64,000 nucleotides of DNA from assembly GCF_054482595.1 (NCBI RefSeq), contig NZ_CM137008.1. The stretch is one strand, 5' to 3'. Position numbers and translations under genes: made by a program. The notes beneath the pieces were generated by a model that ran no database searches, was not told where the DNA came from, and was given only the letters and a program-made list of their open reading frames with translations. This document shows positions 3,076 to 56,703 of this stretch, piece after piece. Within the stretch, counting starts at the first letter, position 1, and each line of letters starts with the position of its first letter.

Positions 3076-3828
3076 GTTGTCACCCTGGACCTGGTCGTAC
3101 ATTTAAGAAATTAAATCATTTCAACTTGGTTGTTAACGCAACCTGTATTTTGTTAACGCTGCGTTACGATGGAAAGTATGTCTGCGGAAATATTTTTAAT
3201 AACTCACCCGCGCGTTGTATTTTTCTTTTTTTGTTCATACCAAAGTATTAAAAGCCACGTAAATACGCTGTTATCTACGCAAAAAATATTTTGTTTTCTT
3301 TTAAATCTCCGTTTTCCGCTAGCAAAAAACACCAGACAGTCATTCTTCTTGCCCGTCGCTGATTGCTGCGATATGTCTTGCGCACAAGCCGTGACAAACC
3401 TCGTCTTTTTGCAGTAAAAAATTGTCCACGGTGGTGTGGAGAAAAAACAAGAACGTTTTACATGACGAAAGGACTACACCGAAATATTTTTTATATGCAT
3501 TATTAGTAAGTTAGCACCATTTGTATGATTTTTTAAAATTGTGCAATAAAAACCAAATGTACAACTTTTCTATCATTCCTAAACTTAATAAAACCTTAAA
3601 GTTAACATTTCAATATAACGAGTTACATTTAGTTACATGTTTAACACTTGATTTAAGATTTGTAATGGCTAGATTGAAATCAGATGTAATCCATTAGTTT
3701 TATATTTTACCCATTTAGGGCTGATTTATTACTACACACAGCAGTGCAACATCTGTCAGTACTTCTGGTGCTTCTATTTTAGAGGCAGCTGTCAGGTGTG
3801 CGATCAATAAAAAAAGCGGGGTTTCATC
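3076..3828. promoter_or_regulatory. divergent csgBAC / csgDEFG intergenic regulatory region (promoters and long csgD 5' UTR)
   Basis: ~750 bp AT-rich ORF-poor spacer between divergent csgB and csgD. In E. coli this region is a known hub for OmpR, CpxR, IHF, H-NS, MlrA and sigma-S and for sRNA targeting of the csgD leader. Individual sites were not mapped here. Confidence 0.8.
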
Positions 3829-9372: not shown

Positions 9373-9460
9373 GGTGAGGTGTCCGAGTGGCTGAAGGAGC
9401 ACGCCTGGAAAGTGTGTATACGGCAACGTATCGGGGGTTCGAATCCCCCCCTCACCGCCA
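9373..9460 (+). tRNA. serX: tRNA-Ser (anticodon GGA), class II with long variable arm, 88 nt
   Basis: GGTGAGGTGTCCGAGTGGCTGAAGGAGCACGCCTGGAAAGTG...GGTTCGAATCC...CTCACCGCCA; 7-nt anticodon loop CUGGAAA; T-loop GGTTCGAATCC; encoded CCA. Confidence 0.92.
9447..9460 (+). repeat. attL core: 14-bp direct repeat (ccccctcaccgcca) forming the serX 3' end
   Basis: Identical 14-mer recurs at 51067..51080 in the same orientation, immediately before a terminator-like hairpin that would be the native serX downstream sequence. Confidence 0.65.
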
Positions 9461-18133: not shown

Positions 18134-18339
18134 CAGCTTTTCCTTACAGAGGGTGAATAAAAAAGCCGGTACCCACAAATGTGGATACCGGCAGGTACAA
18201 AACAGCATGGTCAGATAAAGTGGTTTTTCCCGGACATAAATGCTTCCCCTCTCTCATCCGCCAGAGAAGTATCAGTCCGTTGTGTGCAATTCCGTTCTGC
18301 ATGATGAAGAGATTCAGCTGCCTTTTCGCAGACCATTAA

Positions 18340-18395
18340 CCACCATAAACGATCGATGACAACGATCGATACCTGTTTTATCGATCGTTTTATTC
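18340..18395 (-). promoter_or_regulatory. agn43 phase-variation switch: three clustered GATC (Dam) sites overlapping the OxyR operator
   Basis: GATC at 18351, 18364 and 18383 within 36 bp, ~220 bp upstream of the flu start; matches the known Dam/OxyR switch architecture. Confidence 0.7.
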
Positions 18396-19640: not shown

Positions 19641-21212
19641 ATGACAAGTATTCAACAACGAGCAGAACTGCACCGCCAGATATGGCAAATTGCCAATGAT
19701 GTCAGAGGTTCTGTTGACGGATGGGATTTTAAGCAATACGTTCTGGGCGCGCTTTTCTACCGTTTTATCAGCGAAAATTTTTCCAGCTATATTGAAGCCG
19801 GTGATGACAGTATCTGTTATGCGAAACTGGATGACAGCGTAATTACTGATGACATTAAAGACGATGCCATCAAAACTAAAGGCTACTTCATCTACCCAAG
19901 TCAGCTTTTCTGCAACGTAGCTGCGAAAGCAAATACCAATGACAGACTGAATGCAGATTTAAACAGTATCTTCGTTGCTATCGAAAGTTCTGCTTACGGT
20001 TACCCTTCAGAAGCTGACATCAAAGGTTTGTTTGCTGATTTCGATACCACCAGTAACCGCCTGGGTAACACCGTTAAGGATAAAAATGCCCGCCTGGCTG
20101 CGGTTCTGAAAGGGGTTGAAGGGTTAAAACTTGGTGACTTCAACGAACATCAGATTGACCTGTTCGGCGATGCCTATGAGTTCCTGATTTCTAACTATGC
20201 GGCGAATGCTGGTAAGTCAGGCGGCGAGTTTTTTACACCGCAGCATGTCTCTAAGCTGATTGCACAACTGGCTATGCACGGGCAGACCCACGTTAACAAA
20301 ATCTACGACCCAGCCGCAGGTTCCGGTTCGCTGTTGTTACAGGCGAAAAAGCAGTTTGATGACCATATCATCGAAGAAGGCTTTTTTGGTCAGGAGATCA
20401 ACCATACGACCTATAACCTGGCGCGTATGAACATGTTTTTGCACAACATCAACTACGACAAGTTTGATATCAAGCTGGGCAATACGCTGACTGAGCCGCA
20501 CTTCAGAGATGAAAAACCGTTTGATGCCATCGTTTCTAACCCGCCGTATTCAGTGAAATGGATTGGCAGCGATGACCCGACGCTGATTAACGATGAGCGT
20601 TTTGCCCCGGCTGGCGTCCTGGCCCCCAAATCAAAAGCTGACTTCGCGTTTGTATTACATGCGCTGAACTATCTTTCGGCCAAAGGTCGCGCCGCGATTG
20701 TCTGCTTCCCGGGTATTTTTTACCGTGGCGGCGCAGAGCAGAAAATCCGTCAGTATCTGGTCGATAATAACTATGTCGAAACCGTGATTTCACTGGCACC
20801 GAACCTGTTCTTTGGCACCACCATTGCCGTAAACATTCTGGTGCTGTCTAAACATAAAACGGATACCAAAGTTCAGTTTATTGACGCCAGCGAACTGTTC
20901 AAAAAAGAGACTAACAACAATATCCTGACCGATGCCCATATCGAACAGATTATGCAGGTATTTGCCAGCAAGGAAGATGTTGCTCATCTGGCGAAATCTG
21001 TTGCGTTTGAGACTGTTGTCGCGAATGACTATAACCTGTCGGTGAGCAGCTATGTGGAAGCGAAAGATAACCGCGAAATTATCAATATTGCTGAACTGAA
21101 TGCAGAGCTGAAAACCACGGTCAGCAAAATCGACCAGTTGCGTAAAGATATTGATGCAATTGTGGCTGAAATTGAAGGCTGCGAGGTGCAGGTAATGACT
21201 CCAACTTATTGA
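19641..21212 (+). CDS. hsdM: type I restriction-modification N6-adenine methyltransferase subunit HsdM; last ~7 codons supplied by IS1
   Basis: 523 aa; SAM-binding motif [10 protein letters not shown] and catalytic NPPYS; C-terminus ...[14 protein letters not shown] reads into the IS1 inverted repeat (IS1 begins at 21191). No hsdS or hsdR nearby. Confidence 0.8.
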
Positions 21213-21958
21213 TAGTGTTTTATGTTCAGATAATGCCCGATGACTTTGTCATGCAGCTCCACCGATTTTGAGAACGACAGCGACTTCCGTCCCAGCCGTG
21301 CCAGGTGCTGCCTCAGATTCAGGTTATGCCGCTCAATTCGCTGCGTATATCGCTTGCTGATTACGTGCAGCTTTCCCTTCAGGCGGGATTCATACAGCGG
21401 CCAGCCATCCGTCATCCATATCACCACGTCAAAGGGTGACAGCAGGCTCATAAGACGCCCCAGCGTCGCCATAGTGCGTTCACCGAATACGTGCGCAACA
21501 ACCGTCTTCCGGAGCCTGTCATACGCGTAAAACAGCCAGCGCTGGCGCGATTTAGCCCCGACGTATCCCCACTGTTCGTCCATTTCCGCGCAGACGATGA
21601 CGTCACTGCCCGGCTGTATGCGCGAGGTTACCGACTGCGGCCTGAGTTTTTTAAATGGCGGAAAATCGTGTTGAGGCCAGCGCCCATAATGCGGGCGGTT
21701 GCCCGGCATCCAACGCCATTCATGGCCATATCAATGATTTTCTGGTGCGTACCGGGTTGAGAAGCGGTGTAAGTGAACTGCAGTTGCCATGTTTTACGGC
21801 AGTGAGAGCAGAGATAGCGCTGATGTCCGGCAGTACTTTTACCGTTACGCACCACCCCGTCAGTAGCTGAACAGGAGGGACAGCTGATAGAAACAGAAGC
21901 CACTGGAGCACCTCAAAAACACCATCATACACTAAATCAGTAAGTTGGCACCATTACC
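21191..21958 (-). mobile_element. IS1 (768 bp)
   Basis: Terminal inverted repeats ggtaatgactccaacttattgat (21191-) and atcagtaagttggcaccattacc (-21958); internal insA/insB. Flanking 9-mers differ (cgaggtgca vs caaaaatac), so no target-site duplication. Confidence 0.9.
21206..21903 (-). CDS. insAB: IS1 transposase genes insA (21628..21903) and insB frame (21206..21709); InsAB' made by -1 frameshift
   Basis: Ins[44 protein letters not shown]...; InsB ...[21 protein letters not shown]... Confidence 0.9.
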
Positions 21959-35534: not shown

Positions 35535-37427
35535 TTAGCCAAGAATCGAACGGCGAACTTTATAATAATATTTGATGAGCTTATTTCTTCTTGGCGAACC
35601 GACAGGAGCATATTTGTTAACATATGGCATTAAAGCTCTTTTAATCTTTGTCTGCAGTAACACGGTTTGCTGCAGTTCAGTATGTTGGTTAGGTACTACC
35701 GTGGCCACAGGTAACTGGCGATAGTAGATTTCTTTCTCCCATGGCGTACTTAAAACATTCTCAAGAAAATCATCATAGAAATCGACTTTCTCAGTATTCC
35801 ATGGTTTGTTTTCACCCGCATAGTGAATCATTTTTGGATTTCTTCTGGCTTGCAAAAAGCGCATATAGGTTGAAAACTTGAGATTCGGGAAGAAATCATC
35901 GGTATTACCATTACCATGGTACACGTTCCATTCTAATGGTAAGAATTTGACTCGGCCAAAGAAGACTTTGTTCATGATATCCTGATCTAAGAACCAATAC
36001 TTTTTGGCTTTCAATGCTGACATCAATTGAGCAAAGGTATTCTCTGTAACCATTTGTTCGACATTAAAAACAATAATCCCGGCCTGAAAATATTCGTCAG
36101 GATTAGTCATTCCTAATGTCTTTTTCAGGTATTGCTCTGCAGGCATAATGCCATCATCTGATTCTGACATGGTACCAAACTTCACAAACCCTTCCATGAC
36201 GATGTCTTTAACAGCGGCAACCAGGTTAGTGCCGATCTCGACATCCAGAAGTGTCGCCAAATCAGCCTTCACCACGGTGTCAGAATCGATAAACACAACT
36301 TTTTTATACTCGCGGAAAAGTTGCGGGATGAACAAGCGCGCATAGGTCGACGCACTAAAATGTGCACGGGTATGAACATCACTCATCTCAGTGAATGAAT
36401 TCACATCAAAAAAGCGCAATGATATGTTGTTATGACCAGCAACTAGCTTGATAAGGCGTTGTTTATTTAAATGACTGACCTTATTTTCCAGAACAACGAT
36501 ATCATAGTTTCTGCTCGCATCAGAATGGAGAACAATTGAATTGATTAATGCCCCGCCACTTAATGCATAGTTATTATCAAAACTAATAACAACCGGTACG
36601 CTTTCGTCAAAAACGGGCTTTAATTTACCATTAAATGTTTCAGCAGTAACAAACGTGCGCTGTAGTTCTTTTATTTTTAGCTGTTTATCTTGTTGACATT
36701 TGATGATATAGATATTGAATAAACGCTCAGCAATGTGTCCTATAACTCGTTTTTCTTGAGCGTTGTAGTTATTCATCGAAATCCGATCTTCAAGATTAGA
36801 CAAAATAGCAAAAAGCCATTCAGAATAATCCAGGAACATGTCTTTGCGCATAACAAACATGTTCGTATAATAACCATCAGTTGCATTATTGAATTGTTGA
36901 ATCGCAGCTTTATATTGTGGATACAGCTCTTCAACGACATCCAGGGCAGACTGATAGTCTTTAATGTGTAAAAACTCACCTTTTGCATAATGATCAAGGT
37001 TATTCTTACTTCCTGCCGATGTTACCGACCATTTTTTGGGTAACAGCAGATCATATCCATCGACGCAGGTGCTTATGGATTCATCACTTAATCCAAACTG
37101 GCTTTCGTATTCGGCATTGATGAGCGGGTAGTTGACTACCCCCCAGTTATCCTCAGGATGATTTTGTTGTTCTGCAAAGTTCAAGTGTCTGCGGTAATGC
37201 ATGAATCCCACATAGTCAGCCAGAGATTCATTCTTCCACACCCAGTAGTGGGCCGTCAGCTCACAATAGAAGGGGTTTTTAAAGGAAATGTTGTCTCCGC
37301 TATCATCCCCTTCACAGCCAATATCATTATAAGTATTAGCCTTCCCGACATGCAGTGGTTTAATAATAGAGGCATTTAGAAAAGCACTGGGTTTGTGGTG
37401 ACATGTATAAATTTTGATACTATTCAT
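35535..37427 (-). CDS. wbbM: bifunctional galactosyltransferase, WbbM-like (DUF4422 N-terminal plus GT8 C-terminal, 630 aa)
   Basis: N-terminal CELTAHYWVWKN-containing domain; C-terminal GT8 (VVISFDNNYALSGGALINSIVLH, DSDTVV); size matches Klebsiella WbbM (recalled). Confidence 0.65.
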   Translation of the reverse strand: MNSIKIYTCHHKPSAFLNASIIKPLHVGKANTYNDIGCEGDDSGDNISFKNPFYCELTAHYWVWKNESLADYVGFMHYRRHLNFAEQQNHPEDNWGVVNYPLINAEYESQFGLSDESISTCVDGYDLLLPKKWSVTSAGSKNNLDHYAKGEFLHIKDYQSALDVVEELYPQYKAAIQQFNNATDGYYTNMFVMRKDMFLDYSEWLFAILSNLEDRISMNNYNAQEKRVIGHIAERLFNIYIIKCQQDKQLKIKELQRTFVTAETFNGKLKPVFDESVPVVISFDNNYALSGGALINSIVLHSDASRNYDIVVLENKVSHLNKQRLIKLVAGHNNISLRFFDVNSFTEMSDVHTRAHFSASTYARLFIPQLFREYKKVVFIDSDTVVKADLATLLDVEIGTNLVAAVKDIVMEGFVKFGTMSESDDGIMPAEQYLKKTLGMTNPDEYFQAGIIVFNVEQMVTENTFAQLMSALKAKKYWFLDQDIMNKVFFGRVKFLPLEWNVYHGNGNTDDFFPNLKFSTYMRFLQARRNPKMIHYAGENKPWNTEKVDFYDDFLENVLSTPWEKEIYYRQLPVATVVPNQHTELQQTVLLQTKIKRALMPYVNKYAPVGSPRRNKLIKYYYKVRRSILG

Positions 37428-37441
37428 CTTATTACCAATTA

Positions 37442-38182
37442 TTAAGCCATTGCTTGCTTGTAAAGTTCAATGATTCTCTCTGCTGAGCCAATTTCGCGGA
37501 GTTTATGGTTTTCGATCCAAACAACTCTGTCACAGATTTTTTCAACATCACTCATATTGTGGCTAACGAATAATATCGTTACACCCTTATTTTTGAAGTC
37601 TCGTATTGTTTGTATACATTTGGCCTGGAACGAAATGTCACCGACAGCAAGTACCTCATCGATAATAAGTATATCGGGTTCTACCTGGCTGATGACAGAG
37701 AATCCAAGCTTCGCAAGCATACCACTTGAGTACACGCGAATAGGTTCGTCAATGAAATCACCCAGCTCGGAGAACTCAATTATCCGATCCATCCGTTGCT
37801 GAACCTCTTTGCGGCGTAGCCCAAGCAGGGTCGCATTGAGATAAATATTTTCTCGCCCGGTTAATTCAGGGTGAAAACCGCCGCCTAGCTCAAGCATTGA
37901 GGCAACGCGTCCCTGGGTTGTAACAGTGCCTTTTGTAGGCTTAATGACGCCGGCCACCAGCCCGAGGGAGGTACTTTTCCCTGCGCCGTTACGACCAATC
38001 AGCGCTACGGCCTCGCCTTTACCCACGGTGAAGGTAATGTCTTCGATCGCAAGATATTTACGCCCTTTTAACAGCTGAAAAGCTCTTTTAGGGTGAAATA
38101 CGAGATCCTTAATTCCTGAGCCAATATGGTGGTAAAGAGGATACTCTTTCGTAACGTGACTAAAGTTTATTACTGGTTCCAT
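37442..38182 (-). CDS. wzt: O-polysaccharide ABC exporter ATP-binding protein (246 aa)
   Basis: Walker A GRNGAGKST, signature YSSGM, Walker B LIIDEVLAVGD; start overlaps wzm stop (taATG). Confidence 0.82.
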   Translation of the reverse strand: MEPVINFSHVTKEYPLYHHIGSGIKDLVFHPKRAFQLLKGRKYLAIEDITFTVGKGEAVALIGRNGAGKSTSLGLVAGVIKPTKGTVTTQGRVASMLELGGGFHPELTGRENIYLNATLLGLRRKEVQQRMDRIIEFSELGDFIDEPIRVYSSGMLAKLGFSVISQVEPDILIIDEVLAVGDISFQAKCIQTIRDFKNKGVTILFVSHNMSDVEKICDRVVWIENHKLREIGSAERIIELYKQAMA

Positions 38183-38961
38183 TACAAAATCTCTGCAAAT
38201 CGATATTTTAATTTATTAAAAATACTCAGGCCCACAATTGTCAGGACTAAACCTGTAATGTAAAGGATTGAAATATATTCATAATTTAAGACGCCATCCA
38301 TGAACAGCTGCCGCCAGCTGAGGATCATGCTTGCCAGAGGATTATAGGTAATAATCCAGCTAAATTTTTCAGGAATCATATCTGACGCATATAATATCGG
38401 CGTGCAATAAAACATGAGCATGATACCAAGGCTGACAAATCGCTCTAAATCCCTGAAGAACAGATTTAGCGTAGAAAATATGATTGAAATACCAAATGTA
38501 AAAATCACCTGACCAAGCGCAATAATTGGTACGCCCCAGAGCCATGAGAGCGATGGACGCATACCATACACGAACAGGAATGCAATAATCACAGGAATTG
38601 TACACAAGAAATGTACCCCTTCCATCATGACATTACTCAATGGAATAACTGAGCGCGGAAAAACTGTTTTTTTGATTATTTGCGCATTGGCTATAAACGA
38701 AAACAAGGAATTTGTCGCCGAGCTGGCAAACCATTGCCACGGAAATAAACCGGTAATCAAGAAAAGGGTATAATTCGGGATCTGCACTCGCATAACGAGC
38801 TTAAAAATGAAATAATATATCATTGCAAAAAGCAGTGGATTCGCAATTGACCATAAGTAACCAAATACGCTGCTTTTATAACGTACCTTTAAATCTTTGT
38901 TTGTTATAACAACAAGAAGATCAAACAAATACCCTATATTATACTTCATTTTTATACTCAT
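38182..38961 (-). CDS. wzm: O-polysaccharide ABC exporter permease (ABC-2 type, 259 aa)
   Basis: Six predicted hydrophobic segments; first gene of the operon downstream of the ops element. Confidence 0.8.
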   Translation of the reverse strand: MSIKMKYNIGYLFDLLVVITNKDLKVRYKSSVFGYLWSIANPLLFAMIYYFIFKLVMRVQIPNYTLFLITGLFPWQWFASSATNSLFSFIANAQIIKKTVFPRSVIPLSNVMMEGVHFLCTIPVIIAFLFVYGMRPSLSWLWGVPIIALGQVIFTFGISIIFSTLNLFFRDLERFVSLGIMLMFYCTPILYASDMIPEKFSWIITYNPLASMILSWRQLFMDGVLNYEYISILYITGLVLTIVGLSIFNKLKYRFAEIL

Positions 38962-39258
38962 AAATTATTCTACAAAAAATTCCGTACGTAATATGTATCA
39001 AACAGAATTATCGATAAGATCTGCTGTGCTCGAGAGACGAACAGCTATTCCCATAAACAAAGACCAATTGTAACATCATTTTGCACAAGCAATATGTAAA
39101 CAATCTTTCCTGCGCATTAGCACTCCGGAATCGGAGATGATCGCTAACCTCAGTAACCGCTGAATGAAAATGTGATTCTCGTGGAAGATACATAAACCAT
39201 CCTTTAAGATTGTAAATAAAATGTTAAATCGAACAATGAGTTTATTCTAAAATTCAGA

Positions 39259-39270
39259 CACGCTACCGCC
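39259..39270 (-). promoter_or_regulatory. ops element (GGCGGTAGCGTG), RfaH recruitment site, in the leader of the wzm operon
   Basis: Plus-strand cacgctaccgcc is the reverse complement of the canonical 12-nt ops; ~300 bp upstream of the wzm start in the transcribed orientation. Confidence 0.75.
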
Positions 39271-39899
39271 ATTGGCTATCGCAACCAAAATGCGGACTCC
39301 CCTCTCTAAAGTGTCTGTCTTACCCGGTCTTACCGTAACGAAGAGGATACGCTCGTCGTTAGCTCCACAAGCATTACCGGCGCAGCATTCATGAAGCCAC
39401 AAACAGCCTAGTCAGCGTTCGGCAAAAAAGCTAAAAACAAACGGATATCTGTACTCAGCGCCCCTCTCCGGACTCACATCCATCGCTACACCGCAACAAA
39501 TGCACCGCTACTTTCCCCAGTTTATGGCATCCTATCCATCAGGACTTTCTCATTTCACCCTTGAAACCAACAAAAAGCGTCACTCTCGGCAGTATGACTT
39601 CAACAGCCATGTAGCTGGGCGCTCCGCATCTCTACATGAGTCAGGCAGAGTATTAAGTTCGCGGGCAGGCAGCGGCAACACCACCAGGATAACGTACTTC
39701 CTCATCCTATCTTGCATAAAAGTGAATTTGACTTTTCTTCAAAAGTGGTCAAATCCGAGCGTCGTAGGGTACGTTTGCTGCGCATTATCAATAATGCATC
39801 CGTAGGACGTGAATTACGCGCGCATTATAGCTCTGGTCTGGAAGAATAAAAATGAAAAAGCATGACCAATCCATCCAGCCAAAAAATACTGAAGTGGTC

Positions 39900-49697: not shown

Positions 49698-50906
49698 TCA
49701 TCGCTGGTTTTCCATAATCTGAGACATCACATAATCCGCCCATGCCTGCATCATCGGTATACGCTGATCCAGCAGATCAGTCCGGTGATATGCCGCCTCA
49801 ACCTTATTTTTCAGCGTATGGGCAAGCGCCCTTTCCGCCAAATCCCGCGAATATCCCTGTTCGCTACACCAGTCCCTGAATGTTGAACGAAAACCATGTG
49901 CTGTAGCCACTCGTCCGGGTATATCACTGATGGCCTTCTTTTTACGCAGAAAACTCGTCAACACCATATCTGAAAGGATCTGCTGCTTTCTGGGAGAAGG
50001 AAACACCAGTTCGTCATGCAGACCACGTATATTTTCCAGAACGTGAATGGCCTGTCGGGATAAAGGAACACGATGCTGTATCCTGGCTTTCATTCTTTCT
50101 GCGGGTATCGTCCATATCCGCTTATGAAAATCAATTTCAGCCCAGCGCATTCCCCTTGCTTCGCCCGAGCGGGTTGCTGTCAGTATCACCATTAATAACA
50201 GTGCCCGGGTAACATTATAAGGTTCATCTGTATACACACTGGTCGCCACAAAAAGCGGTAACTGCCTCCAGGGCATTGCCGGCTGGTGTTCATCACGTCC
50301 TCTTGATTGCTGTGGAAGCAAATGATCAACCACATCAACAGGATTCGCCACACAAAAACCATGCGCCCAGCCCCACTGCATAACAACATGAATGCGCTGT
50401 TTAACCCGGCTTGCCGTTTCTGACAAGGTTAACCAGACTGGACGCAGTGTTTCTGCCACGTCCGCAGCCGTAATCGAATCCAGCGTTTTTGCTCCCAGTT
50501 GAGGAAACGCGTAATTCTCAAGCGTCGATAACCACTGCCTTACATGCTTTGGATTTTCCCATCCAGGAGACAGTTCTGCATGTACACGCCTGGCTGCATC
50601 GGCAAATGTTGGGATAACAACTTTTTCAGCTTCAGCCTTTTTAATCTCCAGAGGATCATCACCTGCAGCAAGTTGCTCTCGCATTATCCGGGCAGTACGT
50701 GCAGCTTCAGCAATACTGACCTCAGGATAAGTTCCCAATCCAGCATTACGCCTTTTTTGTGTCACCGGACTTACATAACGAAAAACCCATTTACCCCTCC
50801 CCTTTACTGAAGAAGGATGAAGAGTCAGTCCTGTAATTCCCCCATGGGGCAATGGTTTGTCATCAGGTTTGATATGCCTTGCTTTAGTATCCGTCAATAC
50901 TGCCAT
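49698..50906 (-). CDS. int: P4-type tyrosine integrase (402 aa)
   Basis: N-terminal MAVLTDTKARHIKPDDKPLPHGGITGLTLHP...YPEVSIAEAARTARIMREQLAAG (DUF4102-like arm-binding domain); C-terminal catalytic HGFRSTFRDW and AAYHRTDLL (Tyr). Confidence 0.9.
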   Translation of the reverse strand: MAVLTDTKARHIKPDDKPLPHGGITGLTLHPSSVKGRGKWVFRYVSPVTQKRRNAGLGTYPEVSIAEAARTARIMREQLAAGDDPLEIKKAEAEKVVIPTFADAARRVHAELSPGWENPKHVRQWLSTLENYAFPQLGAKTLDSITAADVAETLRPVWLTLSETASRVKQRIHVVMQWGWAHGFCVANPVDVVDHLLPQQSRGRDEHQPAMPWRQLPLFVATSVYTDEPYNVTRALLLMVILTATRSGEARGMRWAEIDFHKRIWTIPAERMKARIQHRVPLSRQAIHVLENIRGLHDELVFPSPRKQQILSDMVLTSFLRKKKAISDIPGRVATAHGFRSTFRDWCSEQGYSRDLAERALAHTLKNKVEAAYHRTDLLDQRIPMMQAWADYVMSQIMENQR

Positions 50907-51272: not shown

Positions 51273-52259
51273 TCACTTATTAAAATGCCCCCAACGGAAA
51301 TACATGTCACATGCCATCATAAAATCGTTATGCCAGAGGAATCGACAATAGAAAAAATAGTAAATTAAGCACGGTACATAGCAGAGTAAAAAATAGGCTT
51401 CAAACCAAATCCGCCATTCCACAAGCGTTGCCAATACCGACACCAGCGTAATCCACATCACTTCAATAACCAGCAATATGAATAACCGAAGCCAAAGCGG
51501 CTTGGCAAAAAAGGTCGACAACACATTTTCACTGGAGAAAAAGAGATCGATTTCCTGCAAAAAAAGCCTGCCCAAAAAAGCGTACCGCCTGGAGAAGCGC
51601 AGAAAAAACAGATTAATCGCCAACACTACGCCACAAAGAATGAGCAATGCAATTATCGATTTAAACGTTAACCACTGCCCCTCTATCACAAAAGAATCAC
51701 TGTTACGCAACGGGCTGATAGTAAGCAGGTTAACAACCGTTGAGATGCACACCGAAAGCAGCACATAGCGAGTCAGACTTTTATATTTTACTTTTTTCGC
51801 TACTGAAATAGCGACCTGCTTGACATAACTGGTGCGGATCATCCGAAACAGCAGAAAGATAACCAACGGCCCAAGTAACGAAATCAGGAACAGCGCATAT
51901 AACGAGGGTAGACGCTGGTATAGCCCCCAACTCATTGCACTCAACATGATTAACGACAGAAATCCTGCCACCAGAGGTTGCGTAATAAATAATTCTATTT
52001 TGTGGTTCTGCTTTTTCTTAAACCACGAAAAATCGATATTCTTCGTGACGCATTTATAAGCCCAGTACGCCTTGAGATCAAAAATAAAATTATACAGCAC
52101 CAGGGCCAGAATCCCACTAACGACACCAATATCCTCTGATGGAAAAGTAAATCCTGCATTTTTCCAATAAAAGCCTATCAGAATAAGTCCAATAGCATAA
52201 ATGTATATCAGACTTCGTTTATCCTGAAAGCGAATAAAAGTTAAATAATCAGGAATCAT
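51273..52259 (-). CDS. ycdU: inner-membrane protein YcdU (328 aa)
   Basis: ORF track 328 aa, multi-pass hydrophobic; K-12 backbone gene next to serX. Confidence 0.85.
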
Positions 52260-53200
52260 TTGAATACCTTCGCATCACTAAATGCTTTACGACAATGCAT
52301 AACTCGTTGCTGATCCACGCCAGCGAAATCATTTAACATATTCCCCAAATAGGGCTTATTACTTATTTCAAGGAAAGCTACCGAGGTTGGCATATTCAGA
52401 AATGTATCGAGAGATTCAGTCCATTTCACCGTATGAGTTAAGTGTAATGAGAGATTTTCTTTGATAATTGACGGAGCGACCTCGCTTTTTGCTGTTACGT
52501 TCATCAGAACCTGATGCTCTGGCGAAGCGATATCCAGTCCGGCAAGATAATCGCGCATTGCCTGAACGCCGTCTTCCATCAAACGCGTGTGCCAGGCACC
52601 GCTCACACCGAGTTTAACCGGTTCGTATCCAGCGGCCATCAGCAGCGTGGCAAATTCATTCAACGCAGCCTGCGTTCCCCCAATAACCTGCTGGCGCGGC
52701 GTGTTATCACAGCTAATATCCAGCGCAATGCCTGATTCCGTAATCATCGTCTGCAGTTGTTCGCGGTTGATGCCTTTAACCGCCAGCATTGCGCCTTTAT
52801 TTCTCTGGCTTTCGTCATGCATTAGGCTGGCTCTGAAGTGAATCATGCCAAATAGCGTCTCAAGAGAAATAGCTCCAGCGGCGTAGAGCGCACTGTATTC
52901 ACCAACGCTGTGTCCGCAGGAGCCCACAACCGTTAAATTCTCAAGACGCTCGCGGCACAGGGTATAGAGCGTTACATTAATTGCGGTCACCGCCAGTTGT
53001 TGTACCGTCGTTTGAATAAGGCGATTCATCGGCCCTTTCTGACACAGGCGACGCAGGTTCAGTCCGGAAATATCGCTGGCACAATCCCAGATATGTTTTG
53101 TACTGGCGTTGAGATCCCAAAGATCGCTGCCCATACCAATAACCGGATTACCCTGACCGGCAAAAAGCAGTACTGTCGGTTGTGAAGCATTATTCATCAT
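52256..53200 (-). CDS. FabD-like acyltransferase (malonyl-CoA:ACP transacylase family, 314 aa)
   Basis: [12 protein letters not shown] and active-site GHSVGE motifs; occupies the position of the K-12 ymdE fragment (recalled). Confidence 0.75.
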
Positions 53201-53210
53201 CTCTTTATCC

Positions 53211-54599
53211 TTATAGATAGTATTTAAAGCCCAAATAAAGGCCTAACGTGTCGCCAAAAAGCGCAAATTCAGAATACCGACTTCCCAGCGCGCTATAGCC
53301 ACCGGCATAGGCTTCAAGCTGGTTACTGATAGCGCTGAGCGGCGTGGAATAATGCAGGCCCAGCAACGTGCTGCCATCAATGAGATTGACCACCAGCGAA
53401 GGCTGCAGCGTCGACTCTCCCGCCAGCGGCAGACTGGCCCAGGCGTTCAGATAGTGCTTACCCTGCAGCATCCCCTGATTGGCGGTATTGCTGATTTCTG
53501 AAGCCATCAGGTATTTGTAAGAATCAAATGCCTGATCCAGTGGCGCATAGCCGGTTGTGGTATTGAGGAAGTCAATTAACTCGCGCTGCTGACGCTGTTC
53601 AGCGCGCGAATACCCCTCGCTCTGAAAGTAATACTCAACGCCAAACACGCTGAAATTATCGCTGGTGTACTGCCCCCCCAGGGCCAGCTCCACGCCGCTT
53701 TCGTCTTTCGTTTCATAGAGCGAATCCGGAAACTGATATTCCTCGACCTGCGCCGTCTCATGGTGGGAAAGATGCCGCCATTGTTGGGAGCGGTGGTAGG
53801 CTGCGTCGACATTCAGCGTCAGCTGCGGGGTGTAGTGATAACTGTCAGACAGCGCGAGTGACGGCGATGGTCCGAGCCGCACATTGACTGTCGGCGTGTG
53901 CTCACCAAAGCGATGGTCGCTGTAGCTCAGCAGATAGGCTTCATCGCTGTTTCCCTGCTGATTAGCAGACCAGTTGCCAGACGTCACATAGCGTTTGTCG
54001 ATGGTGGCTAACTTCGGTATGACGCTCGCCGAAAACGCATAATCGCGTGTATCCAAGTTCATTTTTGCGCCCCACGATGACGCCTGATACGCCGATGTCA
54101 TTTTGGGATCGTGCAAACGTGTCGACTGGAATCCGGTGTAATAATGCGTTTGCAAATCAGAAGGCGAACGCAAAAAGAACATTCCTGACGGCGCGGCAAA
54201 TTTTCCAGCTTCAAATTGAACGCTGTCCGAAGCGCTATAGACCAGACTGAGGCGGTTAATTAACGCACGCGTGCGGCTATCATCCGTTTCGAATTTCCCT
54301 GCGGGTTTAAGCGCATATTCGTTTATTCCATACAGATTGAGCTTAAGCTCCAGCGTATTGTCGATTATCGAACAACCGCTATTGATGCCAATCCCCGCCT
54401 CCTGATAACCGTTGTGACGTGTGTAGGGATTTTTGCCTGCAATCTGCCAGGCCGAAGCCTGTTTATTGACATAAGACACCTGCTCGTAAAGCGTCACATC
54501 GCTGTTTTGTGCCACCTCGTCACCTGACAGGCAATCCGCCTGTACCGTCAACGGCAGCGCAACACACAGCAACGAAGAGATCTTCAGCGTACGTTTCAT
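53211..54599 (-). CDS. secreted protein with signal peptide (putative outer-membrane protein, 462 aa)
   Basis: N-terminal MKRTLKISSLLCVALPLTVQA; Tyr/Ser/Gly-rich alternating sequence suggestive of beta-strands. Confidence 0.45.
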   Translation of the reverse strand: MKRTLKISSLLCVALPLTVQADCLSGDEVAQNSDVTLYEQVSYVNKQASAWQIAGKNPYTRHNGYQEAGIGINSGCSIIDNTLELKLNLYGINEYALKPAGKFETDDSRTRALINRLSLVYSASDSVQFEAGKFAAPSGMFFLRSPSDLQTHYYTGFQSTRLHDPKMTSAYQASSWGAKMNLDTRDYAFSASVIPKLATIDKRYVTSGNWSANQQGNSDEAYLLSYSDHRFGEHTPTVNVRLGPSPSLALSDSYHYTPQLTLNVDAAYHRSQQWRHLSHHETAQVEEYQFPDSLYETKDESGVELALGGQYTSDNFSVFGVEYYFQSEGYSRAEQRQQRELIDFLNTTTGYAPLDQAFDSYKYLMASEISNTANQGMLQGKHYLNAWASLPLAGESTLQPSLVVNLIDGSTLLGLHYSTPLSAISNQLEAYAGGYSALGSRYSEFALFGDTLGLYLGFKYYL

Positions 54600-55384
54600 T
54601 TCGCACCTCGCTGAATATACTCTTTGGTGAAATGAAACTCCGGCAGCGATTCCAGACGAACATCGCTGTACTCCATCACTGAATAGTTATTGCCGTGACG
54701 AACATCGGTAACGGTTATTTTCATGGGTCGCGTTTTCCCCAACACCGGCTGGAAATCCTGATACAACACTTCTTTTATTAACTGGTCATCCTGCGAATAA
54801 TAGGCCGCCTTCCACGGGCGATTATCACCGTCTTTTTCAACGTAATAGATAACCTTCGGCCAGGTGATATCCGCCGATTTACGCACCAGCGCCAGCTTGT
54901 AACACTGCTTTTCAGCACACGTGACTTCCCCCACCAGGGTCGAGTCATAGGCATATTCAAAGTTAGTGACAATGACATCGCCGTTAGAGATTTGCCCAAT
55001 TAATCTTTGTTGCCGTGAAATAGGCATAGGACGTCGCAGTTCCGGCGTGTAAAACCATAAATCGTACCAGTCGGAAAGCATGATTTTTCCTTTATCTCGC
55101 GGCGGATAAATAAAACGCACCAGCGAGCGTGCATCCGCTTTTTCATTACCCTGCGGTTTCATAAAGCGCATGGAAATATCGAGGACCTGTTTATTCTCTG
55201 GCTGGGTTGCGCCCGCTTTATATTCCGTTACCGTCAGCGTGTAACGAAACGGTTTATTCGGCGAACGAATTTCGTCAGCGCGACGAATTATCTCCAGCGC
55301 CTTATTATCTGTGCTCGCCGCCTGAACGCACGACGTAGCGAGCCACAGGCAAGCAAACCACTTGCCGTAAAAAGCCATATTCAT
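54596..55384 (-). CDS. periplasmic LolA-like / lipoprotein-sorting-like protein (putative, 262 aa)
   Basis: Signal peptide; adjacent to an FtsX-type ABC permease; family recalled, not searched. Confidence 0.4.
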   Translation of the reverse strand: MNMAFYGKWFACLWLATSCVQAASTDNKALEIIRRADEIRSPNKPFRYTLTVTEYKAGATQPENKQVLDISMRFMKPQGNEKADARSLVRFIYPPRDKGKIMLSDWYDLWFYTPELRRPMPISRQQRLIGQISNGDVIVTNFEYAYDSTLVGEVTCAEKQCYKLALVRKSADITWPKVIYYVEKDGDNRPWKAAYYSQDDQLIKEVLYQDFQPVLGKTRPMKITVTDVRHGNNYSVMEYSDVRLESLPEFHFTKEYIQRGAK

Positions 55385-55392
55385 AATTAGCC

Positions 55393-56703
55393 CTATGAGA
55401 ATTTAAATGCGTCAGAAATATTCAGCCGGGAAGCACGTAAAGCCGGTAACACAGAGGCGCCTGTTGCTGTCAAAATGGGTAATACCACCGTCACCCAAAT
55501 CAATTCCGGGTTACTGGTTTTTATAAAGGCGGTATAGCCGATGGTTTGTCCAGGCGATGGCGGCATCGCAATACCATAAAGATTAATAATCCAGGCTAAC
55601 ACGCCCCCCACCAGCAGGCTGCCGACGGCGCCAATCACACCAATAAAAATGCCTTCTGTCAGAAACAAGCGCGTGACGTGAAGCGGCTTCAGGCCTATGG
55701 CACGCAGAGTGGTAATTTCACGGGTGCGCTCAACAATGTTCATTGCCATCGAGTTGCCGATCATGAAGATGACAATCAGCGCAACAATCAGCTTGATGAA
55801 GAAATAGATCCCCGATAGCAACCCTTCAACCTGTTGATAAAAGAGTGAAACATCACGCCAGTCTTTGACCACCAGCGGCAAATGATTGCGTTCGATAAAT
55901 TGACGCAGCTTTGCGCTAAACGCCGCGGTGTCATCTTCTTTAAGCAGAATTAGCACTTTGCTGACGCCATCCGTACCCATCATGCGCTGCGCGGTGTCCA
56001 GCGGGATCTTCATCGCGACATCGTCATAATCTTTAATGCCTGACTCAAAAATGCCACGCAGTTTTAGCGACAATGCGCCCTGCCCGCCCGCCGTGTTGAC
56101 CACCATCACATCCAGCCAGTCGTCGTATTTCGCATTCAACGTTTTCGCCAGACCGCTGCCCAGGGTGATTTCATCACCTTTTACCTGGGAAAGATCGCTC
56201 CCCGCGATAATCTTATCGAACGATCCCAGCTTTAAAGCGGGTAACGGCTCCACCCCCAGCGCGGAGAAATAGCTGGAGGTTTCGCTCTCGTAATGTGAAA
56301 TTACGCCAGTAAACTCCAGTTGCCCGGAGAGCGTGGAAATATCCGCCGCCAGCGTCGGGTCCGACAAAATAGCTTTCTTTAACGCCGCATAATCGGCAAT
56401 CAGGCTCTTATTTTTATTCGACGTTTCAAAATAGTGCTGATTGTAAATTTGTACATGACCAATATTGGTACGAATCGTCTGCTCTTTCAGGATCCAGAAA
56501 GAGTAATCAATAAATCCGCCATATAAAAAAATTGCCACGCCACCCAATACAATGGCGGTTATAGTAGAAAAAGAGCGACGCTTGTGGCGAAAGAGATTCA
56601 AAAATGCAAATTTGACATCTCGTGAATAAAACAGAAGCTGATAAAACACAAAAAACAGAATCAGCAGCAGAACGCTATTAACAGCTAAAATTTCCCCGGA
56701 CAT
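55393..56703 (-). CDS. ABC transporter permease, FtsX/LolC-MacB family (436 aa)
   Basis: N-terminal TM helix, large periplasmic domain, C-terminal 3-TM bundle (…ITTLRAIGLKPLHVTRLFLTEG…). Confidence 0.7.
   Translation of the reverse strand: MSGEILAVNSVLLLILFFVFYQLLFYSRDVKFAFLNLFRHKRRSFSTITAIVLGGVAIFLYGGFIDYSFWILKEQTIRTNIGHVQIYNQHYFETSNKNKSLIADYAALKKAILSDPTLAADISTLSGQLEFTGVISHYESETSSYFSALGVEPLPALKLGSFDKIIAGSDLSQVKGDEITLGSGLAKTLNAKYDDWLDVMVVNTAGGQGALSLKLRGIFESGIKDYDDVAMKIPLDTAQRMMGTDGVSKVLILLKEDDTAAFSAKLRQFIERNHLPLVVKDWRDVSLFYQQVEGLLSGIYFFIKLIVALIVIFMIGNSMAMNIVERTREITTLRAIGLKPLHVTRLFLTEGIFIGVIGAVGSLLVGGVLAWIINLYGIAMPPSPGQTIGYTAFIKTSNPELIWVTVVLPILTATGASVLPALRASRLNISDAFKFS

Follow-up and report, generated by a model that had tools for sequence, protein, structure and literature searches.

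The window analysed here is a 64-kb (64,000-nt) stretch of contig NZ_CM137008.1 (assembly GCF_054482595.1). Its minus strand carries a cluster of seven genes headed by wzm and preceded by a long leader. The features of this cluster, listed in the order in which they would be met from the upstream side, are as follows.

From 39898: remnant of a DDE transposase gene, annotated in E. coli SMS-3-5
39889: upstream limit of the Raoultella-like DNA, beyond which neither R. ornithinolytica nor the plasmid copies are homologous
39824-39861, minus strand: predicted promoter of the O-locus head, with the T-rich GCTTTTTCATTTTTATTC at 39861-39844, a gap of 14 nt and a -10 TATAAT at 39829-39824
39536-39553, minus strand: island 2, an 18-nt conserved motif, ATGAGAAAGTCCTGATGG, with a distal GAAAGTA at 39515-39509
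39259-39295, minus strand: JUMPstart (Rfam RF01707), Klebsiella/Raoultella variant, with ops as its 3' end
39259-39270, minus strand: ops element GGCGGTAGCGTG, exact single match on the non-template strand, at which RfaH is predicted to load and RNA polymerase to pause
38962-39258, minus strand: untranslated spacer of 297 nt between ops and wzm, its final 13 nt before the ATG conserved
38182-38961, minus strand: wzm, O-antigen ABC-transporter permease (annotated start 38949)
37442-38182, minus strand: wzt, ABC-transporter ATP-binding subunit
35535-37427, minus strand: wbbM-like gene, 630 aa, with a DUF4422 and a glycosyltransferase region
34362-35516, minus strand: glf, UDP-galactopyranose mutase (TIGR00031, 321 bits against a cut-off of 303.75)
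33475-34365, minus strand: gene in the wbbN position, family 2 glycosyltransferase
32329-33474, minus strand: gene in the wbbO position, family 4 glycosyltransferase
31047-32207, minus strand: seventh gene, family 2 glycosyltransferase, its 3' end cut by IS903B (30077-31045)

The order and sizes of the first six genes match those of the rfb2a (D-galactan I) set, wzm, wzt, wbbM, glf, wbbN and wbbO, the last two names and wbbM being given here by position and size. Glf scored above its NCBIfam cut-off, and the remaining rfb2a-type products match the expected superfamilies. Neighbouring genes overlap or are separated by no more than 18 nt, apart from one gap of 121 nt, and the GC content of the operon is 35-48% (about 41%), whereas that of the adjoining IS-element DNA is about 52-56%. 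The product of the seventh gene has 386 aa in the window versus 413 aa on plasmid L004. No Shine-Dalgarno sequence was found ahead of wzm, with a duplex energy of 0.2 or -2.2 kcal/mol, and terminator-like sites in the leader and operon were not commoner than in shuffled sequences, so that no particular terminator can be named as a target of RfaH.

The initial annotation had placed an exact 12-nt ops element in the leader of a wzm operon of about 8 kb, and the sequence bears this out. We found that GGCGGTAGCGTG at 39259-39270 exactly matches the 12-nt ops sequence GGCGGTAGnnTG, that this match is unique, and that the DNA around it is non-coding, the wzm ATG following 297 nt downstream with no conserved ORF in between; the operon measures 8.2 kb from ops to the IS903B copy at its end. 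Both the element and all seven downstream genes lie on the minus strand and, because this is the coding strand of those genes, the motif is on the non-template strand, as ops requires. The 8-mer core GGCGGTAG occurs once in the 64-kb window, and a search for a second ops, allowing one mismatch and including the regions upstream of wbbY and wbbZ, gave none. In dinucleotide-preserving shuffles, the exact 12-mer was expected by chance 0.02 times per window (a match in 2 of 100) and the 12-mer with at most one mismatch 0.23 times. The rfaH gene is not inside the window; RfaH and ops form a system common to the Enterobacterales, and RfaH is well established in E. coli (PMC6391919). Two ORFs near the element were also considered. 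A 61-aa ORF in the spacer (39193-39008, minus strand), preceded by a Shine-Dalgarno-like AAGGA, was rejected as a gene and probably is not one, because a 2-nt indel shifts its frame in R. planticola and the Klebsiella leaders lack it; a 101-aa ORF on the plus strand (39500-39805) was annotated in none of the annotated E. coli records examined.

When compared with Rfam RF01707, the sequence at 39295-39259 aligned over all model positions 1-38, with a score of 25.6 bits (E = 0.004 in a search of 1.2 kb) versus a gathering score of 35 bits. The orthologous JUMPstarts of Raoultella and Klebsiella likewise scored 25.6-27.3 bits, and more distant wzm heads, in 8 of the 20 loci scanned, exceeded the gathering score (41-59 bits). 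The low score is due to the 5' two-thirds of the element, which differ from the E. coli consensus, with GGTTGC for GGTAGC, CCAAT for CCAGG and a loop shorter by 1-2 nt. The 5-bp stem, formed by TTGGT (39288-39284) and GCCAA (39276-39272), is preserved with all five pairs in the window copy, and in an alignment of 20 orthologous heads it was 97% paired, with CG/UA and UA/AU exchanges; pairing was lost on sliding the partner columns of the alignment. The element heads a wzm-wzt-wbbM-glf-glycosyltransferase operon, a polysaccharide gene cluster of the kind that JUMPstart elements precede. By these sequence comparisons, the ops belongs to the JUMPstart/ops family as a slightly divergent but otherwise ordinary member, and is an expected rather than a new feature. 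Since this variant falls below the Rfam threshold, automated annotation misses O-locus heads of the Klebsiella/Raoultella type, including those of E. coli O8 and O9.

For the conservation of ops, we used loci fetched by similarity of the Wzm protein alone (n = 26, of which 24 were complete; 67-100% amino-acid identity). Of the 24 complete loci, 19 had an ops with at most one mismatch ahead of wzm and co-oriented with it, as did one of the two truncated loci, and two further complete loci had a JUMPstart with an ops of two or three mismatches, giving a total of 21 of 24. The DNA flanking ops and JUMPstart was otherwise diverged among these loci. A separate metagenome scan with the 30-mer TTGGTTGCGANAGCCAANGGCGGTAGCGTG returned 80 loci, in which the first downstream ORF encoded a Wzm-like protein (36 loci), mannose-1-phosphate guanylyltransferase (manC, 19) or dTDP-glucose dehydratase (rfbB, 12), among others. 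The invariance of JUMPstart among these loci is no evidence of conservation, because they were retrieved by that very pattern, and conservation of ops was judged on the protein-anchored Wzm set only. The genome scan, which used one representative per species and exact peptide words, returned no K. pneumoniae. In addition, a 46-bp block including ops was found, with 97.8% identity, ahead of an rfbBADC and ABC-transporter cluster on IncF plasmids, and about 500 further complete E. coli genomes (of 5,426) share only a JUMPstart block of 40-46 nt. In the two of these genomes that were inspected (L112 and L113; 3501-3546), the block stands at ugd/his, ahead of the O9 cluster and the O8 cluster, respectively, indicating that the normal O-antigen locus of E. 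coli already possesses this variant.

Alignment of the leader with those of Raoultella and species of the K. oxytoca complex revealed just four conserved blocks in otherwise diverged DNA, namely 39861-39824, 39553-39536, JUMPstart with ops, and the 13 nt before the wzm ATG. The first block was also the best-scoring sigma-70-like candidate upstream of ops in a permissive scan, and with its fixed gap of 14 nt it was present in 74 of 78 loci carrying the JUMPstart variant, whatever their first gene; these 78 are the loci with enough upstream sequence, and many of them are near-identical, representing only about 10-20 distinct variants. As the promoter block and island 2 lie outside the search pattern, their recurrence in these loci is not circular. 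It is thus likely, judging from the alignments, that 39861-39824 is the promoter of the O locus, with a start near 39817, and this best and most conserved candidate falls within the interval, 39271 to about 39860, in which a promoter had been anticipated. The predicted start is about 547 nt upstream of ops (the promoter-like block 554 nt), a distance longer than in most RfaH operons, and the whole leader would be about 856 nt. The -35 of the predicted promoter is poor (TTTTTA), and the native DNA between its T-rich block and the IS remnant amounts to no more than about 28 nt. It was because of this weak -35 that a standard promoter scan missed the conserved TATAAT; its sole site, TTCACG-18-GATAAT at 39813-39784, was displaced by the permissive scan and the alignments.

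Island 2, the second conserved block, was found in 73 of the 78 loci at 137-276 nt upstream of JUMPstart, again with any first gene, and is the only unexpected item in the analysis. A search of Rfam with island 2 gave no match. A structured RNA was rejected, RNAalifold having predicted no pairs in 17 variants, and an RcsAB box was not supported, only 9 of 14 positions agreeing with the consensus and the 3' half being out of register. The motif can also be read as a mini-ORF of four codons that opens with AUG or UUG and closes with an invariant UGA. We offer only as a tentative and rather doubtful suggestion that 39553-39509 may be an undescribed regulatory element, such as a binding site for a protein or sRNA or a mini-ORF, and that ops may not be the sole point of control. 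If this were true, island 2 could gate the polymerases that reach ops, thereby setting O-antigen output, and could set the balance of the two O antigens in E. coli strains bearing the island.

Heads of this kind are known from several systems. JUMPstart/ops heads of E. coli and Salmonella were described by Hobbs and Reeves (1994) and Bailey et al. (1997), as cited in PMC4732683 and PMC6128206. In the O-antigen (rfb), core LPS (waaQ) and capsule heads of these species, as in the window, the 12-nt ops terminates a short-stemmed element of roughly 38 nt, is carried by the non-template strand and precedes a long polysaccharide operon; it lies within the untranslated leader of those operons, as is predicted for that of the window. 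The distance from ops to the first gene is 297 nt in the window, whereas it is about 50-140 nt in most wzm-first homologues. The O-locus heads of R. ornithinolytica NBRC 105727, R. planticola, K. grimontii and K. michiganensis have an identical JUMPstart variant and, like the window, a promoter block followed by island 2, JUMPstart and wzm, with 96-99.3% identity over leader and operon in Raoultella; their clusters, however, lie beside a divergent epimerase gene, whereas that of the window lies on a tRNA-Ser island and is found also on plasmids. The polymannose clusters of E. coli O8 and O9 (manC-manB-wzm-wzt) share the JUMPstart variant, with 89-95% identity over 42-46 nt, and are, like that of the window, ABC-transporter-dependent O-antigen clusters, but they differ in their first gene, their polymer and their position at the normal chromosomal O-antigen locus, and their JUMPstart is only 70-80 nt upstream of manC. 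The hlyCABD operon of uropathogenic E. coli resembles that of the window in being horizontally acquired and in having a very long untranslated leader, where ops is part of a JUMPstart distant from promoter and first gene alike. Its transcription starts 1,616 nt, and its ops lies 634 nt, upstream of hlyC (PMC6775461), and these distances place the length of the window leader within precedent; hlyCABD is, however, a toxin operon, and its start site and RfaH dependence were mapped experimentally, whereas both are predicted in the window.

The cluster had also been described as imported and thereby wired into a regulator of the host. Import was confirmed, in that the DNA from 39889 down to 35185, the end of the fetched locus, is 99.3% identical to R. 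ornithinolytica NBRC 105727, over the whole leader and 4.7 kb at the front of the operon, the portion that can be compared with that strain. The same stretch is 96% identical to R. planticola, and the window Wzm is 100% identical to that of Raoultella. New wiring in E. coli did not hold, since ops and about 620 nt of upstream leader came along from a Raoultella-like donor; the identity, which includes the leader, indicates that ops arrived with the cluster and was not gained in E. coli. In Raoultella, the cluster is 1.36 kb from the divergently transcribed epimerase gene, and the E. coli copy keeps 928 nt of this intergenic region. The same cluster, with 98.8-99.8% identity and the same junction at 39889, is present on plasmids of Enterobacter, Citrobacter and E. 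coli, the shared junction implying a single capture event. The full leader was found in 45-49 of the 5,426 complete E. coli genomes, and over these genomes and several plasmids the promoter block, leader, JUMPstart and six genes are 99.3-100% conserved. In three plasmids (for example, L031, NZ_CP056149.1, 3464-4590), homology ends at an IS5 copy 92 nt upstream of ops (window 39362), such that JUMPstart is kept and the predicted promoter and island 2 are gone.

The cluster lies within a 41.7-kb island (9366-51120) at a tRNA-Ser gene (9373-9457), with an integrase at 49698-50906, inserted beside csg/ghrA; the ends of the window are 100% identical to E. coli THO-010 (NZ_AP022540.1). In SMS-3-5, a strain which we take to be of serotype O19, the island is 99.98-99.997% identical and occupies the second of two identical tRNA-Ser sites, the one flanked by infA and clpA. 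Fragments of IS1, IS3, IS5, IS256, IS66 and ISL3 make the island a mosaic. About 14 kb away are a gene for a 740-aa two-domain glycosyltransferase (22062-24284, minus strand) and a divergent pyruvyltransferase gene (24382-25191, plus strand), a pair arranged like the wbbY and wbbZ described by Kelly et al. (2023); in Klebsiella, this arrangement converts O2a to O1. Clusters of the window type in E. coli have already been reported by Kelly et al. (2023), who found wbbYZ close to a complete rfb2a cluster in isolates of this species, on a plasmid as well as at chromosomal sites that varied, noted the possible co-expression of two O antigens, and connected such clusters with the fact that E. coli O19 antisera react with Klebsiella O1 LPS (PMC10629545).

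Taken together, the data make it probable that 39259-39270 is a genuine ops, that the JUMPstart which it terminates belongs to the long leader of a D-galactan I (rfb2a-like) operon of the Raoultella/Klebsiella type and, by homology, that it acts through RfaH antitermination. The exact ops, its place on the non-template strand, the predicted untranslated leader, and the length, AT-richness and acquired nature of the polysaccharide operon all agree with this reading, and RfaH-dependent antitermination is the best-supported prediction for the operon. We infer a promoter, binding of RfaH and an effect on expression from the sequence, as follows. Initiation would take place about 547 nt ahead of ops, from the conserved promoter with its -10 at 39829-39824. 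RNA polymerase would pause at ops with U11 as the RNA 3' end. The non-template strand would then form the small ops hairpin, with C3:G8 and G4:A7 pairs and T6 flipped out in the known RfaH mechanism (PMC6391919), and RfaH of the host would bind both hairpin and polymerase. RfaH would refold and remain bound through the 8.2-kb AT-rich operon, excluding NusG and suppressing Rho-dependent termination and pausing, and it may aid recruitment of ribosomes to the wzm start, which lacks a Shine-Dalgarno sequence. RfaH has been proposed to help recruit ribosomes on operons without such sequences, and the wzm start fits this proposal. As for rfaH mutants of K. pneumoniae, loss of O side chains was presumed in one study (PMC7375759) and only capsule and serum resistance were tested in another (PMC4462621), neither of which shows LPS data.

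It could be argued that the ops is intact but an idle passenger, the operon having become silent or barely transcribed through IS-mediated loss of upstream regulatory DNA or silencing of the AT-rich island. The native DNA does give way to a transposase remnant at 39889, which leaves about 72 nt ahead of the predicted start; the seventh gene is truncated by IS903B in an island full of IS debris; and some plasmid copies have an IS5 at 92 nt upstream of ops and lack the leader beyond it. We nevertheless regard this as unlikely, given that the predicted core promoter, the leader, JUMPstart and the six biosynthesis and export genes are intact and conserved at 99.3-100%, and that Kelly et al. (2023) tie such clusters to the serological reaction with Klebsiella O1 LPS. 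A main promoter downstream of ops, by which the element would never be read and expression would be independent of RfaH, appears less probable by about half: although the 297-nt AT-rich spacer has room for one and contains a weak sigma-70-like site, TTGTTC-16-TACAAT at 39236-39209 (-10 at 39214-39209), this site is not conserved in the Klebsiella leaders, whereas the upstream block is kept in 74 of the 78 loci, and that 21 of 24 homologous loci have kept JUMPstart speaks for its being transcribed. Both of these possibilities fit the intact, conserved promoter block, leader and six genes less well than does RfaH antitermination at a functional ops.

Slightly less probable again is that the JUMPstart hairpin serves mainly as a structural element of RNA or DNA, for example in mRNA stability or processing, with ops adding little via RfaH. 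The compensatory changes in the 5-bp stem across loci and the listing of JUMPstart in Rfam as a cis-regulatory RNA motif would suit such a role, but the 12 bases of ops are far more conserved than the stem or the loop, and JUMPstart function has been tied to ops and RfaH (PMC6391919, PMC6775461). That the 12-mer is a mere coincidence is suggested at most by the exact matches in 2 of 100 window shuffles, and its probability is negligible, since the position, strand, JUMPstart context and cross-genus conservation of the match exclude chance.

If the RfaH antitermination reading is correct, the additional O antigen, similar to Klebsiella O1/O2, that some E. coli lineages and plasmids carry is predicted to share its control by RfaH with the native O antigen, LPS core and capsule of the strain, and a mutation in rfaH or an RfaH inhibitor would then abolish both O antigens together. 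Such co-regulation bears on serotype cross-reactions and on vaccines and antibodies directed against Klebsiella O1/O2. The conserved promoter block and island 2 may serve as targets for mapping the regulation of O loci and for engineering galactan expression in E. coli, the practical value of the finding being modest.

Some further features of the window were observed outside the cluster. By transfer of the SMS-3-5 annotation, a gene for the M subunit of a type I restriction-modification system abuts an IS1 copy at 19641-21903. Matches above the Rfam gathering score were the ES056 sRNA (3682-3773), the IS102 RNA (18152-18388) and the ALIL frameshift pseudoknot of an IS3-family element (28561-28677). 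The right flank, which lies outside the island (51273-63990, minus strand), consists of eleven co-directional ORFs, including ycdU and one for a beta-ketoacyl synthase, and is common to O157:H7 and O55:H7 genomes, with 98.4-98.6% identity.
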